64,000 nucleotides of DNA from IMG/VR virus record IMGVR_UViG_3300025073_000880, one strand, 5' to 3'. Source of the DNA: a virus (taxonomy: Duplodnaviria > Heunggongvirae > Uroviricota > Caudoviricetes). Positions 14,199-47,240 of the stretch are shown here, in pieces. Within the stretch, counting starts at the first letter, position 1, and every line of letters starts with the position of its first letter. The notes under the pieces were generated by a model that saw only the letters and a list, made by a program, of their open reading frames with translations, was not told where the DNA came from and did not search any database. The position numbers and the translations under genes are program-made.

Positions 14199-15095
14199 CT
14201 ATCCGAGCAAACTTGTAGAACTTGAAGTACTTGAGCTTGTAGAACTTGTGGTACTTGAGCTTGTGCTTGAGCTTGTGCTTGAAGTACTTGAAGATGTAGA
14301 GCTTGTAGAGCTTGAGGTACTTGAAGACGTAGAGCTTGAAGTACTTGAGCTTGTAGAGCTTGAAGTACTTGAAGACGTAGAGCTTGAGGTACTAGAACTT
14401 GTAGAGCTTGAGGTACTTGAAGACGTAGAGCTTGAAGTACTTGAGCTTGTAGAGCTTGAGGTACTAGAACTTGTAGAGCTTGAGGTGCTTGAGGTGCTTG
14501 ATAAATACGTATTACTTGGAACAATGATTGATTTTCTAACCTCCCCAAAGTTTAATAGGTTAATATAAAAAGCATCATTTGCTACATTAGAAAAATATAC
14601 AGGGAGTAAAACCTGCTTTGGGAATGTGGTATTATGCTCTGCAACCTTACGTTTATCATCACCATTGCCAATCCAAAATTCAACACGTTCTATTCTTGTC
14701 CGAACCTCAAAAGAAGTTGGTGTATTTGTCCATGTTGCATCCCACGGAACAGTTGTCTGTTCTGGGGTTGCACTATCATCGTTATAAGATCTAACGTAAA
14801 AATTAGTTCCACTGATAAAAAAGTACGCAGCATTCCGATTCCCGAATGCTTTTGAATATAAACCAAAAACTCGAGAATCTCCGCCTGTTGGGGCTGTCGG
14901 CACAGTAAGCTTCATTTCAAAGTTACCGTGCATAAACACCCTGAGGGTACTAATACTGGCAGTGTGTAATCTAATTTTCCCGTCCAAAACTTTCGCATCG
15001 CCACTAAACCTTCTCAATTCTGTTGTGTCGAATCCTGAAAGATATGGGTCATAGAGAAAGTGATAACGATCACTAACTGTTTTTACGTGTGCCAT
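14199..15095 (-). CDS. Virion or surface protein: N-terminal beta-rich domain plus a long C-terminal (SSST)n Ser/Thr tract.
   Basis: About 100 residues of SSSTSSSTSSS... encoded by the 12-nt tandem repeat at 14215-14515. Confidence 0.45.
   Translation of the reverse strand: MAHVKTVSDRYHFLYDPYLSGFDTTELRRFSGDAKVLDGKIRLHTASISTLRVFMHGNFEMKLTVPTAPTGGDSRVFGLYSKAFGNRNAAYFFISGTNFYVRSYNDDSATPEQTTVPWDATWTNTPTSFEVRTRIERVEFWIGNGDDKRKVAEHNTTFPKQVLLPVYFSNVANDAFYINLLNFGEVRKSIIVPSNTYLSSTSSTSSSTSSSTSSSTSSSTSSSTSSSTSSSTSSSTSSSTSSSTSSSTSSSTSSSTSSSTSSSTSSTSSSTSSTSSSTSSSTTSSTSSSTSSSTSLLG
14215..14515. repeat. Tandem 12/24-nt repeat (agagcttgaagt-like units) encoding poly-Ser/Thr.
   Basis: Visible periodicity. 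All three frames on both strands give low-complexity ORFs. Confidence 0.8.
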
Positions 15096-16574: not shown

Positions 16575-17232
16575 TTAGTCAGTTACACCTTTAAGCAAAG
16601 CACAAAGTGGGCTTTGTTTTCGTTCCAAACCAGCTTCAGTAATGAACTGGTCAATCTCTCCATCAACATCAGGGGCCTGAACGTTCATCATGAGCTTAGT
16701 GTCACGATTCGCCATAAAGCGATATCGGAAACAATTAAGATCAAGCAAGAACGCATAGCCTGAATATTCTTCAACAAACAATGGATTGTGCACGATGTTG
16801 ATTGAACCAAATGGGGTCATGTACTCACTGATTTCCAAACCGTAAGATTTATCTCCTGTTTTGGTTCTCAGCTGACCACGAGCCATTTCATTTATTGCCT
16901 GCAAAACAACACCACCACACATTAATACTTTTTGGTTATCACCATAAGTGAAGCCTTCTCGTAAAAATGTGTTAAAGTCTGGAGCTGTTAATGGGCCACC
17001 TTGATTTTGAACAAATCCTGTACCACCCTCAATAAATTCAAGGAGACCACCTGTAGTTCGTAACGGTTTACTGTTACTACCTGTAGTAGAAGCTTTTTCA
17101 CCCCAAATGAAAGCTCGTTCAATATCAAGGGCATGTTCAGTCGCCTTTTTGGCTCTTTGATAAACCAAGTCTGGGCCACCGTACAAATTAGCATTCTTCT
17201 CTGTGTCAGAAACACCAATGGTCGTTTTAAAT
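16575..17232 (-). CDS. Major capsid protein, last exon. The frame is open back to ~17232.
   Basis: Capsid-like C-terminal segment (..FMANRDTKLMMNVQAPDVDGEIDQFITEAGLE). The frame stays open upstream of the TTG listed in the track, right up to the intron D core. Confidence 0.6.
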
Positions 17233-17235
17233 ATT

Positions 17236-18258
17236 TGCTTTATATTGCATCAATAATGATGGGTAAACATCTCTGTTTACCACTATATGTCACCATATAG
17301 ACTCGACTATATCTTCACAAATGTGTGTTCAACGTATAGTCTGTGAGAATTTAACTATTAAATTTATACCGTATAGATAATGGTACACCATTAAAATATT
17401 GGCTATGCGATAATAACGACAAGAACTTAAACGATGGTTTTTTATTTAATCTAATACGATAATACATTCTATCACCACCATATACCCCTTTAACTGGAAG
17501 TATTTTAACCTCTATATTAAATTTTTGCCAAAACCACTTTTTTATACCTTTAACTTCAGATAATGTATAACTATCAGTACAAATAATTATAGAGTCATTT
17601 GATTTTATATAAGATCCATCGTCAAGATACCAAAATAATAAAGAATCCTCATCTAACAAGTTTAACCCACGTCTTGTTATATATCTTTTTTTATTTCTAT
17701 AAAAAATTCCATATATGTTAGTTAAGCTTGGATGAGAAATAGAGTGAGTATGATATTGAATATTACCGTTATTGTTATACCTATTAACATTATCTTGTAA
17801 AAAAATTTCATTCAACAATTGCTTCTTAAACAAGAGATAATCTAATTGCTTTTCACAATGACATAGTGACAATCTATGAAAACCGTCAGTTTGTAATATC
17901 AATGATGAATCACCCAATAATGTGCCGTAAATAATTGACATTTTCTCTTTTGATATACTTTCACCTTTTAATGTTCTAGCCTTAGAATAACTTTTATTTG
18001 TTTTTCTAGGTCTTCTGTCGTTATAATTTTTATAAACACATTTTTTTGAACAAAATATTTTATCTTTTCTATTTTGATAAAATAGTTTGTTGCACTGTTT
18101 ACAATTAATATACATAGTTATCTTTTCTGCTGATTGTCTCTATGTGTAAAATTCTTAGGGTTCGCTAGTAGTTTTCACCGCCTAGTATCCTATTTACACC
18201 ATAACAAGATATCCCAGCATATAGTTGAATTTTACTATACCCAAATTTTTATTAAAGT
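17236..18258 (-). mobile_element. Group I intron D in the capsid gene, carrying a LAGLIDADG HE ORF. Boundaries approximate.
   Basis: Core at 17284-17347 on the minus strand: CACAGACUAUACG (P7 5'), a P8 hairpin, AAGAUAUAGUCGAGUC (P7 3') and a P9 hairpin. This is near-identical to the Tetrahymena intron P7 strands CAGACUAAAUG and AAGAUAUAGUCGGACC. Confidence 0.7.
17351..18115 (-). CDS. Homing endonuclease: N-terminal zinc finger plus LAGLIDADG-type motif (LLGDSSL).
   Basis: CKQCNKLF...CSKKC zinc finger; IYGTLLGDSSLILQTDG. Sits inside intron D. Confidence 0.55.
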   Translation of the reverse strand: MYINCKQCNKLFYQNRKDKIFCSKKCVYKNYNDRRPRKTNKSYSKARTLKGESISKEKMSIIYGTLLGDSSLILQTDGFHRLSLCHCEKQLDYLLFKKQLLNEIFLQDNVNRYNNNGNIQYHTHSISHPSLTNIYGIFYRNKKRYITRRGLNLLDEDSLLFWYLDDGSYIKSNDSIIICTDSYTLSEVKGIKKWFWQKFNIEVKILPVKGVYGGDRMYYRIRLNKKPSFKFLSLLSHSQYFNGVPLSIRYKFNS

Positions 18259-18261
18259 ATA

Positions 18262-18608
18262 GTTGGTCAGCGGAGAGGATTGTGTAGTGTTAATGTTCTT
18301 AGCACTTGAATTTTCCTCATTCGCATTACCAATCAAGAACAAACCATCACCATCAGCTCCAGCAGCAGCCGCAGTCGCACCGAGCGAACGGCCACCTGAA
18401 GCAATAGTAATTGTTGTTGCACCAGCAATCGTAGCTACAAGCATTCTTTCACCAGTTCTGGCGTTAAGAATAACGTCACCAACCGTGAAAATATAAGCCG
18501 AGCTAGACCCAGCACTAGTTACAGTAATTGTTACACCACCTGAAGCGGAATAAGTTCCACTTACCTTTGCGTAACGTCCGCCATAAAAATCTTCGCATTT
18601 GTTAACCC
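18262..18608 (-). CDS. Major capsid protein, internal exon (~115 aa).
   Basis: Open frame ...CEDFYGGRYAKVSGTYSASGGVTITVTSAGSSSAYIFTVGDVILNARTGERMLVATIAGATTITIASGG..., bounded by the intron C 3' core and the intron D 5' end. Confidence 0.55.
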
Positions 18609-18609
18609 A

Positions 18610-19330
18610 TAATTGGGTATTACATCATTTCTGTGTAATTCTCGTGATATCGCACGAGGTCGGACTATATCATCATCCATAAGGATGTTTAACGTGTAGT
18701 CTCTGAGGTTTCTACTTTAATACCTACTTGATTTAATTCCTTCATCTGGTCAAATAATGATTTTTCTTCATCACTATATCCTTGTTTTATTATCCCAAGA
18801 ACACGACCAGTTTTAGAATCTCTCTCAGCCTTAGACTTATAATAACTCCTAGATTCTAAGAATCTTAAAAGTAATTCAGCCCTTGGCTTTTTTGAAATCA
18901 GATACGGTAGCATCAATTTTGTTATCACCTTAACGTCTTCCATTTTATTGACCGTTATGTGATAAGCTTTTTTATGATTAGGTTTTCTAGATGTTGTTTC
19001 TTGCCAAATGTGACCATTGATGCCAGATGCATCAAATATTTTTATAATCTCATTTATCATTACTACATCGGTGTTAGATAGAGTTATTCTTGGAACATAT
19101 CGTTTATTAGTATCATATACTATGGTGAATGTTCCCTCTCCATCCCATACGCCCGCTAACCATGCAATTTGATGTGTAGTTACCTGCTGATTGACCATTG
19201 TATTATTCATAATATTTTTACTTAGTAGTAATTATGACTTTAGGTTATTCCAGCAAATAGTTAAATTTTTAGTGGTCCGAGAATTTTCTAAACCACTTCA
19301 TTGAAGCTTGTTACCAGACTTACTCTGGGG
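18610..19330 (-). mobile_element. Group I intron C carrying a LAGLIDADG HE. The 5' boundary is uncertain (19211-19335).
   Basis: Core at 18640-18708: CAGAGACUACACG ... GAUAUAGUCCGACC plus the P9 hairpin CUCGUGCGAUAUCACGAG. Confidence 0.65.
18689..19210 (-). CDS. LAGLIDADG homing endonuclease.
   Basis: WLAGVWDGEGTF motif. Inside intron C. Confidence 0.75.
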   Translation of the reverse strand: MNNTMVNQQVTTHQIAWLAGVWDGEGTFTIVYDTNKRYVPRITLSNTDVVMINEIIKIFDASGINGHIWQETTSRKPNHKKAYHITVNKMEDVKVITKLMLPYLISKKPRAELLLRFLESRSYYKSKAERDSKTGRVLGIIKQGYSDEEKSLFDQMKELNQVGIKVETSETTR

Positions 19331-19334
19331 CATA

Positions 19335-20033
19335 TGCCTCTATATATCGCTATATAGATCAGACTATATCTTTACTACCACCTATTATTTCTAAAGGGGT
19401 AGACGCTTTGCGTCTAGTCGTTGAGGGCAAAATTTGATAATGCTTAAGATATCTAAGAGATTCTTCGAACTTTTTATCAATAGACTCAAACTGCTCTTTC
19501 TTAATTTTAGAGCACAGTGTACCATTAACATTTCTCTTTTGAAACATTGATAGTCTATACTCTATGTATTCGAGTATTTTTTTAGCTTGTCTTTTTTTGT
19601 TAGAGTGCAATTTATCTATTATTGCATCTAGTATTTTTTTAGTTGATCTATATCCCTCTACGTTAATAGACAGATAATCCATTGCATTGACAAACTTTTT
19701 ATTAGGAGTATGAAGAGTAAAATAAAATTTAGCTCCAAGCACATAAAATATTTCAGAAACCTTCTTTATCAATTCAACATCAGTATTACCAACACCTATC
19801 CTTGTAATAAACGAATATTGTCCATTACCATTGTTTCTTTTCTTATGAACTCCTTGACGTTTATTGGTTGTTAAATATCCCTCTCCATCAATAATTCCGG
19901 CCAACCAAAAAAAGTCACTATCATTAATCATATATTTTATTTTTTCCCTGCTGATTGTCCGCACTAATAGATTTTTACTAATCAGTACTATTAGATACTC
20001 GGAGTTTCCAGCATATAAGCAAAGTTTTTGTTA
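19335..20033 (-). mobile_element. Group I intron B carrying a LAGLIDADG HE. Boundaries approximate.
   Basis: Core at 19340-19425: ACGACUAGACG (P7 5'), P8 GACGCAAAGCGUC, AAGAUAUAGUCUGAUC (P7 3'), P9 UAUAUAGCGAUAUAUA. The HE stop codon lies within the P7 3' strand. Confidence 0.65.
19359..19964 (-). CDS. LAGLIDADG homing endonuclease.
   Basis: WLAGIIDGEGYL motif. Confidence 0.75.
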   Translation of the reverse strand: MRTISREKIKYMINDSDFFWLAGIIDGEGYLTTNKRQGVHKKRNNGNGQYSFITRIGVGNTDVELIKKVSEIFYVLGAKFYFTLHTPNKKFVNAMDYLSINVEGYRSTKKILDAIIDKLHSNKKRQAKKILEYIEYRLSMFQKRNVNGTLCSKIKKEQFESIDKKFEESLRYLKHYQILPSTTRRKASTPLEIIGGSKDIV

Positions 20034-20278
20034 AACCAGAGTCCAAGTGGATTTTTTAAACTCTGGGTTGCCTGTTTCCTTTTTAAGAATACCAGCTCCC
20101 GTCCAAGCCTTACCATCATACACTTTACCAACAGTAGTCAGTAAGGTTGTAAGCGGATGCTTGCGAGGTTCAAGTAAGAAGACTTTATCAACGGCATCCA
20201 CTACTAATCGCTGCTCAGTAGATGACGTTGAAGTATCTCTAGCAGCAGAAGCCACCGCCCCCTGATTGTGGGTCAATC
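20031..20278 (-). CDS. Major capsid protein, N-proximal exon (~80 aa).
   Basis: ..AVASAARDTSTSSTEQRLVVDAVDKVFLLEPRK.. frame. The TTG start in the track is preceded directly by TGA and by the intron A 3' end, so the exon is entered by splicing rather than by initiation. Confidence 0.5.
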
Positions 20279-21210
20279 AATGTTTACTTTATATCTCTAT
20301 AAAGATCGGACTATATCTTAATCCCAAAGGATTCACAACGTTTAGTCTCTGAACGTCTATTAATAAAATCAATTATTCTACTTTGTTTTCTGAATATAGT
20401 GAAAAACAAACCGTGATCAATAAACGATTCTACTCTTATCCCAAAACAGATTAACACCTTTTTTCTACCAGAAGAGAAATTACGTTCTATTTTTAATGTT
20501 TTTACACCTAATTTTTCTAAAAAGTCTTTAAACTCTAATATCCAACTACCCTCAGTTTTGCCAACACCAATTCTATATTGAATGTTTTCCTTATCTGGTC
20601 TCAAAGTTTTAGATATCCACCCATCACCATCCATCACTCCTGCGATAAAATGTTTTTTTATCACATCTGGTGCACGCCATATGACAAAGGGTATATGCGT
20701 TTTCTTGTTTGTCTGCTCCCAAAATATATCTTTTAACTTTTTAAACCCAACATTTATACAGTATTGTACTTGTGTTTTTGACACGTGACCGTTTGGCCAA
20801 TGCCTGTCTATCGGCTCGAGGCGATTAATATTCGCACGACAAGACGGTATTAACAGTTTTATACAAGCAAGTGTTCTATCTGCAAACTCAATGTCTATCG
20901 TCCTTAAAGAAAAATTATAATAATATCCATATTTATCTTTACTTTTAGATATACACCCATCAGTAAGATAAACTCCAAACAAATAGGCTAATTCTTTATT
21001 AATATTCTCGCTGCTGATTTTCTCTAAATCCATATTTTTACTCTTAGGTAATGAATTTCTAACAAGAATTTCCAGCATTTTGTTGTTTTCCAATATTACC
21101 CTCCGTGCATTACTGCACGGGTGCCCACCCATTTTTAGGCTCGCTATAATATGGAAATTGTGCCATATAAAATCTTTAAACCATAATCCCAATACCTTGA
21201 AATGAGATTA
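20279..21210 (-). mobile_element. Group I intron A carrying a double-motif LAGLIDADG HE. Its 5' end abuts the stop of the scaffold-like ORF.
   Basis: Core at 20288-20356: UCAGAGACUAAACG ... AAGAUAUAGUCCGAUC plus the P9 hairpin CUUUAUAGAGAUAUAAAG. Confidence 0.7.
20311..21132 (-). CDS. Single-chain LAGLIDADG homing endonuclease with two motifs.
   Basis: GVYLTDGCIS and FIAGVMDGDGWIS. The track ORF extends to 21192 via TTG and in frame to the scaffold stop. The internal Met (MGGHPCS) at ~21132 is the more likely start. Confidence 0.7.
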   Translation of the reverse strand: MGGHPCSNARRVILENNKMLEILVRNSLPKSKNMDLEKISSENINKELAYLFGVYLTDGCISKSKDKYGYYYNFSLRTIDIEFADRTLACIKLLIPSCRANINRLEPIDRHWPNGHVSKTQVQYCINVGFKKLKDIFWEQTNKKTHIPFVIWRAPDVIKKHFIAGVMDGDGWISKTLRPDKENIQYRIGVGKTEGSWILEFKDFLEKLGVKTLKIERNFSSGRKKVLICFGIRVESFIDHGLFFTIFRKQSRIIDFINRRSETKRCESFGIKI

Positions 21211-46960: not shown

Positions 46961-47240
46961 TTTATATTGCTGTTAGCGTCTTCAATTATTTTATATAACA
47001 AGACCCATTTTCTTTGAAAATAGAATTTCAATTTAATTGCTGTTAGGGTCTTAATGAATTTTAAATGTGCGAGCGAGTGGGGATTGAACCCACGACCAAC
47101 GGCCTGAATGCTTTTTAGTTGCTGTTAGTGTCTTACAAGACACATTTTTACGTTGCTCTACCACTGAGCTATCGCTCGCATAACACGACGCATTTTGACA
47201 AAGTAAGAATTTGTTTTGCTGTATTGCTGTTAGCGTCGTA
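46961..47240 (-). repeat. Four copies of the minus-strand motif GACNC-UAACAGCAA, each with a covarying partner stem. One copy is inside the tRNA-like RNA. Y-RNA-like module array.
   Basis: Copies at 46964, 47037, 47122 and 47226 (plus strand TTGCTGTTAGNGTC). Partner pentamers covary: GACGC/GCGTC, GACCC/GGGTC, GACAC/GUGUC, GACGC/GCGTC. Confidence 0.55.
47069..47180 (-). ncRNA. tRNA-like Y-RNA candidate (YrlA-like). It has canonical acceptor, D and T arms, but ~50 nt replace the anticodon loop.
   Basis: Acceptor CGAGCGA/UCGCUCG with G-1:C73; D arm GCUC-AGUGGUA-GAGC; T arm GUGGG-UUCAAUC-CCCAC. The anticodon-position stem (C)AACG/CGUU(G) encloses a hairpin GUGUC-UUGUAA-GACAC followed by UAACAGCAA. 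Lies between rsr and rtcB. Confidence 0.5.

Follow-up and report, generated by a model that had tools for sequence, protein, structure and literature searches.

What lies between two introns of one phage gene that are almost contiguous? The question is raised by a 64,000-nt stretch of DNA (the window) from a tailed phage (Caudoviricetes; IMG/VR record IMGVR_UViG_3300025073_000880), in which an SU10/DUF5309-type major capsid gene on the minus strand is interrupted by four group I introns, called A to D here. An original prediction made on this DNA offered two answers for the interval between introns B and C: either a micro-exon of a few codons separates them, or C is inserted into the 3' tail of B, which would impose an order on splicing. 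Its landmarks proved exact. The match of intron B to the Rfam model RF00028 ends at 19340, the open reading frame (ORF) inside intron C starts with an ATG at 19210, and the interval, put at no more than ~130 nt, measures 129 nt (19339-19211, minus strand). Our analysis makes it very probable that this interval holds a genuine micro-exon of 8 nt, flanked by two independent and complete group I introns. All splice junctions given below were inferred from sequence comparison and base pairing.

Results

The 129 nt that separate P9 of intron B from the ORF of intron C begin with a 41-nt tail of intron B (19339-19299), continue with the 8-nt exon (19298-19291) and end with the first 80 nt of intron C (19290-19211), all on the minus strand. 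The original prediction had the core of B ending at ~19340, and this stands as the end of P9 but not as the end of the intron, which continues through P9.1 (19338-19329, GGC/GCC), P9.2 (19328-19314, CCAGA/UCUGG) and a single-stranded tail of the form UAACAA(N1-9)G, here UAACAAGCUUCAAUG, to its terminal G at 19299. The exon that follows is AAGUGGUU as RNA. Intron C opens with UAGAAAAUUCUCGGACCACU, followed by the 5' strands of P3 (UUUAAC) and P4 (UUGCUGG) ahead of the ORF. Folding the interval for P1 and P10 pairings, the check proposed with the prediction, was informative: the minimum-energy structure of 19360-19211 contains P9, P9.1 and P9.2 of B, an unpaired linker, and then the P1 hairpin of C, AGUGGUU...GACCACU, which holds the micro-exon. 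P10 pairings were found for both introns and are described below.

The 8 nt between the introns (exon 3, AAGTGGTT) are identical to what intron-less genes carry at this site. Read as AAG TGG TT they supply K83, W84 and the first two bases of F85, the K-W-F residues that are otherwise absent from the capsid model, so that the few codons foreseen for a micro-exon turn out to be two and two-thirds, which restore KWF. Exon 2 (20058-20273, minus strand; 216 nt, T11 to F82) ends in AAC CCA GAG TTT, and exon 4 (18256-18595, minus strand; 340 nt) begins with the C of F85 and runs from E86 to T198. The 8 nt are the expected exon sequence because 33 distinct DNA versions without introns, all from related phages, read AAY CCN GAR TTY AAR TGG TTY GAR GAY at the site. 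The five exons joined amount to 1257 nt, in frame, and encode 418 aa. Aligned with 14 intron-less homologues, this model is gap-free across all four junctions (EP|THNQG at intron A, NYT|QIFK at intron D) at 70-73% identity; P80, F85, E86 and D87 are invariant in the alignment, and F82 and W84 nearly so. Two independent ribozyme cores thus flank nucleotides that are needed for the frame and for conserved residues, and these nucleotides are predicted to be retained in the mRNA. A direct join of exon 2 to a sequence read as VNKCEDF was also considered and was rejected, as it leaves a gap and mismatches against the homologues; the VNKC stretch belongs to the tail of intron C.

Each of the two introns has a core of its own. 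Intron B (19299-20057, minus strand; 759 nt) is a phase 0 intron between F82 and K83, and intron C (18596-19290, minus strand; 695 nt) is a phase 2 intron after the TT of F85. A scan of the 14-25 kb region of the window (11 kb) with RF00028, for which the gathering score is 50 bits, returned four matches, all on the minus strand and all in one gene, with 3' ends at 20287, 19340, 18641 and 17283 and scores of 35-37 bits (E 1e-6 to 5e-6). Those of B (19513-19340, 36.3 bits, E 2.2e-6) and C (18868-18641, 35.2 bits, E 4.8e-6) cover model positions 1-253. Four core motifs, namely the P4 5' strand WTGCTGGRA, the P4 3' strand AATCAGCAG, a J6/7-P7 sequence with GACTA and the J8/7-P7' sequence GATATAGTC, are found once per intron in the same order and on one strand only, and the rest of the window is essentially free of them. 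Inspection shows a separate P3 and P8 in each intron as well (P3 is CUUUGC/GCAAAG in B and UUUAAC/GUUAAA in C), and a terminal G precedes the 3' splice site in both (G19299 in B, G18596 in C). The prediction had named one core shared by B and C as a finding that would refute it; the separate RF00028 matches and the single motif set per intron rule such a shared core out. In the capsid genes of relatives, introns that lack an ORF reach 62-88 bits with RF00028 and pass the gathering score, so the intron family is genuinely group I. B and C are predicted to be self-splicing group I introns.

The extent of intron B beyond P9 can be judged from its relatives, which we collected from related capsid loci (numbered with an L below). 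The tails after P7' of eleven introns were folded one by one (B, C and D of the window, those of L046, L047 and L052, those of L048 and L055, and three of L049); this separate folding replaced a MAFFT alignment of the tails, which had misaligned the shortened P9.1 of B. All eleven tails contain P9, P9.1 (with a loop that is usually CAGAAAUGA), P9.2 and, immediately ahead of the exon, an unpaired (U)AACAA(N1-9)G, and across them the helix sequences vary while the pairing is kept. P9.1 of B is shorter than in its relatives. Since the eleven tails share this architecture, the 41 nt after P9 of B are an ordinary intron tail with a shortened P9.1.

The boundaries are matched by internal guide sequences. 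The guide of B (20036-20050, minus strand), 5'-CCACUU GG ACUCUGG-3' or CCACUUGGACUCUGG, has its P10 part first and then its P1 part, and can pair with the joined exons CCAGAGUUU^AAGUGG at 15 positions in a row. Here 9 bp of P1, formed by the last 9 nt of exon 2 (CCAGAGUUU/GGACUCUGG) and with two U.G wobbles at the 5' splice site after GAGUUU, are contiguous with the 6 bp of P10 (AAGUGG/CCACUU). The guide of C (19271-19287, minus strand), 5'-AAAAUUCUCG GACCACU-3' or AAAAUUCUCGGACCACU, is laid out in the same way and pairs with AGUGGUU^CGA.GAUUUU. Its P1 (AGUGGUU/GACCACU) has 7 bp with a U.G at the end after GUGGUU, and in its P10 (CGA.GAUUUU/AAAAUU.UCG) 9 of 10 positions are paired. The micro-exon is shared between the two: its bases 1-6 are the P10 strand of B and its bases 2-8 the P1 strand of C, with an overlap on AGUGG. 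Estimated duplex energies are -7.4 kcal/mol for B and -9.5 kcal/mol for C, the guide of which lies 13 nt downstream of the exon and forms a local hairpin with it.

Guides and exons change together in the relatives. In the C-type intron of L047 the exon AAAUGGUU is accompanied by the guide GAUCAUUU, and the first P10 pair is U-A in L047, where the exon starts with U, versus C-G in the window, L046 and L052, where it starts with C. In the B-type introns of L048 and L055 the guide is equally continuous, with the wobble and the splice site 2 nt upstream, after GAGU. This difference has the appearance of intron sliding: between the introns after GAGT (L048 6087/6808, L055 3918/4625) and the one after GAGTTT in the window (20058/19298) both splice sites are displaced by 2 nt, and the guide changes match. 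A separate observation concerns the P9.2 region of intron B (19327-19314, minus strand), CCCAGAGU--AAGUCUGG, which shares 8+4+2 bases with the sequence of exon 2 joined to exon 3, CCCAGAGUUUAAGUGG. The guide GGACUCUGG could pair with this exon-like sequence, which may be a guide decoy, a relic of a duplicated target or a matter of chance; the chance is ~0.4% for the 8-mer alone, and the likeness is absent from the B-type relatives in L048 and L055.

Both intron types also occur alone. About one third of 59 related capsid loci in IMG/VR are interrupted. Solitary C-type introns, with exon on both sides, sit at the exact C site (after TGGTT) in L046, L047, L052 and a metagenome contig (L225), solitary B-type introns sit 2 nt upstream of the B site in L048 and L055, and a third intron type lies after TGGTTT in L040 and L059. 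L048 and L055 carry, in their B-type introns, the closest relatives of the ORF in intron B (48-51% identity), and those of the ORF in intron C (50-55% identity) are in C-type introns elsewhere. The pair of B and C with its 8-nt exon was found only in the genotype of the window; relatives have B-type or C-type introns alone, or pairs 17-19 nt apart. Such pairs, both at the same motif, are seen in L049 (2600-6010), where no fewer than five introns are present and the exons measure 45, 29, 45 and 19 nt, the last of these (AATCCAGAATTTAAATGGT) with introns on both sides, and in L237, where a 17-nt exon (CCAGAATTCAAATGGTT) separates the 3' end of an upstream group I intron from a C-type intron. A search of IMG/VR with a tight tandem pattern gave no second pair of B and C, and the same pattern in the metagenome collection led to L237, where the upstream intron is a different one, and to L225, with C alone. 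Look-ups of the exact B and C ORF proteins returned only the genotype with both introns. Exact-junction searches of IMG/VR for C-only alleles, B-only alleles and the window's own junction gave no matches, and because the window's own junction is unmatched there too, these negatives say nothing on single-intron alleles. By comparison across these loci, the NPEFKWFED stretch is an insertion hot spot, in which the window holds the tightest intron pair seen.

Two of these loci deserve a further remark. L237 is a Hainich groundwater contig of 1157 nt, with its 17-nt exon inside the stretch ~280-360 on the reverse strand, and is a second case of two introns crowded at NPEFKWFED. L049 has one intron with an ORF on the opposite strand, and a C-type intron (C-like ORF and ribozyme) that lies upstream of the C site, at a distance of 21 nt, and whose retargeted guide pairing is GCUGGUC with GACCGGU.

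The arrangement recurs in independent assemblies. The B and C ORF proteins are found, exact, on 19-22 contigs, mostly of 50-200 kb, in JGI, ENA and Logan assemblies from at least five independent samples. Over 4.8-5.8 kb around the gene, including the junction of B, exon and C, JGI 3300025121, ENA ERZ27254749, JGI 3300002097 and Logan SRR3989309 are 100% identical, and JGI 3300009031 is 99.86% identical. An assembly chimera was considered and rejected, as B-only and C-only alleles would share 8 nt at the junction, which is too short for a k-mer assembler. Such repeated assembly on 50-200 kb contigs points to a replicating phage.

Among the other ways to read the junction, the one that survives best removes the 8 nt together with the introns: B, the 8 nt and C would be excised as one, like a 'zombie' tandem twintron, or exon 2 would attack the 3' site of C, and the 8 nt would be a pseudo-exon. 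Tandem group I modules spliced as a unit, and also an 18-nt pseudo-exon, are described from Ophiostoma mitochondria (PMC12308204), and in the phage gene cleavage at the first U.G wobble of B (after GAGUU) followed by the exon 4 start CGAAGAT would be in frame, giving NPEF-EDFY with the skipped junction CCCAGAGTTCGAAGATTTT. However, K83, W84 and one Phe would then be missing from the best-conserved motif of the product, a deletion present in none of the 14 homologues and in none of 47 intron-less loci, and from the 5' site after GAGUUU skipping shifts the frame. Skipping from the 5' exon of B to the 3' site of C is further disfavoured because the guide of B mismatches exon 4; it has no complementarity to the start of that exon, but it makes a 6-bp P10 with the micro-exon. 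We regard removal of the 8 nt as improbable.

A second possibility keeps a micro-exon but makes it 16 nt long (CTTCAATGAAGTGGTT), with the 5' site of B after GAGU, its 3' site after UAACAAG, a junction CCCAGAGTCTTCAATGAAGTGGTTCGAAG and a protein that reads NPESSMKWFED. This exon is in frame, its 5' site is the one that the homologous introns of L048 and L055 use, and a G does follow UAACAA. Yet it adds two residues and loses the nearly invariant F82, it pairs the splice-site U with A and not with G, and it leaves a P10 of only 2 bp, while introns i4 and i5 of L049 also have a G directly after UAACAA that is not the splice site. The longer exon is therefore quite improbable. A slighter chance still attaches to decay of the gene, in which one intron would no longer splice and the window would hold a capsid pseudogene in a defective element. 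The truncated P9.1 of B, the lack of a Pfam match for its ORF and the low Rfam scores would fit decay, but no exon is damaged or out of frame, full-length identity to homologues is 70-73%, the four intron ORFs are open, and the identical genotype is present on 50-200 kb contigs from many samples.

Nesting of C within the 3' tail of B, such that splicing of B would be completed only after removal of C, was the second option of the original prediction and is hardly credible, for although the introns are very close and P9.1 of B is shorter than in its relatives, no inner intron was found to interrupt the structure of an outer one without an exon between them: the tail of B is complete, with its terminal G directly before exon-like sequence and an architecture that in ten related introns is likewise followed by exon, the exon nucleotides on either side of C are exactly those of intron-less genes, at a site where C-type introns stand alone, B-type introns stand alone 2 nt upstream in L048 and L055, and any 3' splice site of B downstream of C would delete conserved residues.

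Several observations weigh against the 8-nt micro-exon itself. The RF00028 scores of B and C are below the gathering score (36 versus 50 bits), because the intron ORFs interrupt the model, and the match of C was lost to filters when the whole 64-kb window was scanned. The ORF of B has no Pfam match at E<=0.01. The 5' site of B has to be set 2 nt downstream of that in L048 and L055 (GAGUUU versus GAGU), at the second of two consecutive U.G wobbles, and cleavage at the first of them would shift the frame; the in-frame alternative with a 16-nt exon exists as well. The need for four splicing events seems a heavy cost for the late gene with the highest expression, and the spliced 418-aa protein was not found among 5.8 billion proteins, where the best match has 73% identity.

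The remaining exons complete the gene. Exon 1 (21137-21166, minus strand; 30 nt, ATG to CCT) encodes MAQFPYYSEP, in agreement with the homologue N-terminus M(A/P)Q(F/Y)PYYTEP, and exon 5 (16575-17237, minus strand; 663 nt) runs from Q199 to D418 and the stop codon and carries PF17236 (SU10_MCP) in public gene calls. Searching the collection of 5.8 billion proteins with the joined coding pieces gave 723 homologues of 413-425 aa, all with PF17236 and all uninterrupted, the top ones at E ~1e-190 and 66-73% identity. Annotated capsid proteins of cultured phages are 23-31% identical to the 418-aa model (by tblastn, which found distant genes only), and the full-length similarity to members places the protein in the SU10/DUF5309 capsid family (PF17236). 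No match to the 4.8-kb gene came from a megablast search of 50,697 GenBank phages. The gene order on the minus strand is portal (25731-23629, PHROG portal), a 282-aa acidic protein (22056-21208) and then the fragmented gene down to 16575, which is the only visible capsid gene of this phage. On the 3' side of the capsid module, a 298-aa ORF (14199-15095, minus strand) ends in ~120 C-terminal residues of SSTSSSTSS... repeats, and in other frames this repeat yields long spurious ORFs.

All four intron ORFs are open. That of intron B (19359-19931, minus strand) has 190 aa from its ATG with a single LAGIIDGEG motif, within WLAGIIDGEG; no PDB match was found for it. That of intron C (18689-19210, minus strand; 173 aa from the ATG) is by profile a single-motif LAGLIDADG homing endonuclease, with matches to PF14528 LAGLIDADG_3 (30.3 bits, cut-off 22.5) and PF00961 LAGLIDADG_1 (26.7 bits, cut-off 23.1) and weak matches to solved LAGLIDADG structures in the PDB (E 5e-4). 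The two proteins are 31% identical (E 2e-10), and both match phrog_5046. Intron A (20274-21136, minus strand; 863 nt) is a group I intron whose RF00028 match ends at 20287 (37.2 bits, E 1.2e-6); its ORF, listed as 21192-20311 (minus strand), encodes a 293-aa double-motif LAGLIDADG protein (Pfam LAGLIDADG_3). Intron D (17238-18255, minus strand; 1018 nt), also group I, has an RF00028 match that ends at 17283 (36 bits) and an ORF (18115-17351, minus strand) for a 254-aa protein with LAGLIDADG_2 (PF03161, E 2e-29).

The outer introns have a history of their own. Endonucleases of the intron A type (39-56% identity) are found near codon 47/48 in L041-L043 and L054-L058, and at codons 10/11 in the window (21136-20274), which suggests the same lineage at another site; the 3' end of intron A resembles that of the L040 intron after TGGTTT. 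The ORF of intron D is in sense orientation in the window (18115-17351), and its homologues (46-54% identity) are antisense in L055 (5864-5121) and in L056 and L057 (4033-3281), so that the ORF cassette appears inverted within homologous ribozymes. A further group I intron (RF00028, 79.8 bits) lies at 11204-11390 in L047, ~3 kb downstream of the capsid gene, and introns in this phage group thus occur outside that gene too. Elsewhere in the window, Rfam gives a tRNA match of 110 nt at 47069-47178 (minus strand; 47.6 bits, E 2.5e-9) that ARAGORN did not call; 49 nt stand in place of the 11-nt anticodon-arm centre of the model, which suggests a tRNA gene with an insertion of ~38 nt.

Discussion

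The 8-nt micro-exon raises the question of how two ribozymes could use it. We propose that each intron would splice independently by the usual two transesterifications. B would align exon 2 and the micro-exon on its one continuous 15-nt guide, and C would use 7 of the 8 micro-exon nucleotides as the 5'-exon strand of its P1 and the start of exon 4 in its P10. Because the pairings overlap on AGUGG, both ribozymes cannot hold the micro-exon at once; P10 of B and P1 of C would be mutually exclusive, and the micro-exon would be passed from one ribozyme to the other. C probably captures it first, by way of the local hairpin. Were C to splice first, its guide would leave with the intron and the exon would be freed for P10 of B; were B to splice first, P1 of C would be untouched, and no order would be obligatory. 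The order of splicing anticipated by the original prediction survives in this restricted sense: simultaneous pairing is excluded, but either order is mechanistically possible. Removal of both introns would join exon 2, the micro-exon and exon 4 into ...NPEF|KW(F|)EDFYGGRYAK, with the length and motif of the homologues. The predicted mRNA junction is GAGTTT|AAGTGGTT|CGAAGAT within the spliced sequence GGCAACCCAGAGTTTAAGTGGTTCGAAGATTTTTATGGCGG, and the predicted peptide is ETGNPEFKWFEDFYGGR.

As to its origin, two different mobile introns, each with a LAGLIDADG-type gene of its own, may have entered the best-conserved nucleotide stretch of the gene in separate homing events. For single-motif LAGLIDADG enzymes the recognised sequence is typically ~20 bp long and surrounds the insertion site, and with a spacing of 8 bp the expected targets of B and C must overlap. 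Each intron would destroy most of one half-site of the other, and the double allele should resist both enzymes. With so little exon between the introns, B, the 8 bp and C would have to be inherited, and would probably home, as one unit of 1.46 kb.

It is possible, although on balance we doubt it, that B, C and the 8 bp between them act as one composite mobile element whose ribozymes are coupled through their shared 8-nt substrate, by a preferred splicing order or possibly by a regulated, in-frame, exon-skipped capsid isoform without KWF, and that this is the first micro-exon between group I introns to be described outside organelles. On this reading, 8 bp of homology would be too little for recombination; repair of a double-strand break that either endonuclease made in a capsid gene free of introns would have to start from exon 2 and exon 4 and so copy both introns, and the double insertion would also destroy the targets of both enzymes. 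The capsid-gene family concerned is one in which these intron lineages have shifted by 1-2 nt and, through retargeting, have come to occupy at least ten sites.

The locus is of use beyond its own gene. An exon just long enough for P10 of one ribozyme and P1 of the next is a natural test of the minimal exon need, and a test case for interference versus cooperation of neighbouring ribozymes. Two introns with putative endonuclease genes 8 bp apart raise the question of how the second one entered, and co-homing is predicted. The capsid gene family as a whole, in which introns occupy many sites, a single gene can carry five or more of them and exons of 17-45 nt occur, offers a rich data set for intron sliding and retargeting. 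There is also a practical side, as the gene callers behind the public calls fragment the capsid gene and overlook the 8-nt exon, and automated proteomes of this phage group are left without an intact capsid protein.

Full-text literature searches brought up no relevant account of a phage micro- or mini-exon associated with group I introns. The parts of the locus are ordinary introns and endonucleases, and as far as we could find the arrangement around an 8-nt micro-exon is known from mitochondria and new for phages. Landthaler and Shub are said to have described, in 1999, three group I introns and exon skipping in orf142 of phage Twort. The likeness lies in several group I introns within one phage gene and in possible exon skipping; the host gene and the intron lineages differ. 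We know of no sub-10-nt exon from Twort orf142, the exon sizes of which were not compared here. A self-splicing intron in the capsid gene of a tailed phage is described for Cluster J mycobacteriophages (PMC3706429); the window has four introns in one capsid gene, two of them 8 nt apart, and its relatives carry five or more.

The closest counterparts are mitochondrial. In Ophiostoma, cob-201 has tandem group IB introns with an 18-nt 'pseudoexon', and cox3-640 is a tandem twintron reported to splice as a unit (PMC12308204). As in the window, two group I introns with LAGLIDADG-type ORFs are adjacent with a very short spacer, but the cob-201 spacer is a partial duplicate of the downstream exon, whereas that of the phage is authentic, non-duplicated coding sequence that must stay in the mRNA. 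In placozoan mitochondrial cox1, a micro-exon of 1 nt between two group IB introns has support from RNA-seq (PMC5436844), and there likewise the exon restores a conserved codon and the frame and is explained by the insertion of a second intron beside a resident one. The placozoan exon is a single nucleotide in an animal mitochondrion, seen by RNA-seq, whereas that of the phage is 8 nt in a capsid gene, between introns that both carry putative endonuclease ORFs, and is deduced from sequence. Unlike the 1-nt exon of the placozoans, the phage exon has room both for P10 with one intron and for P1 with the other.

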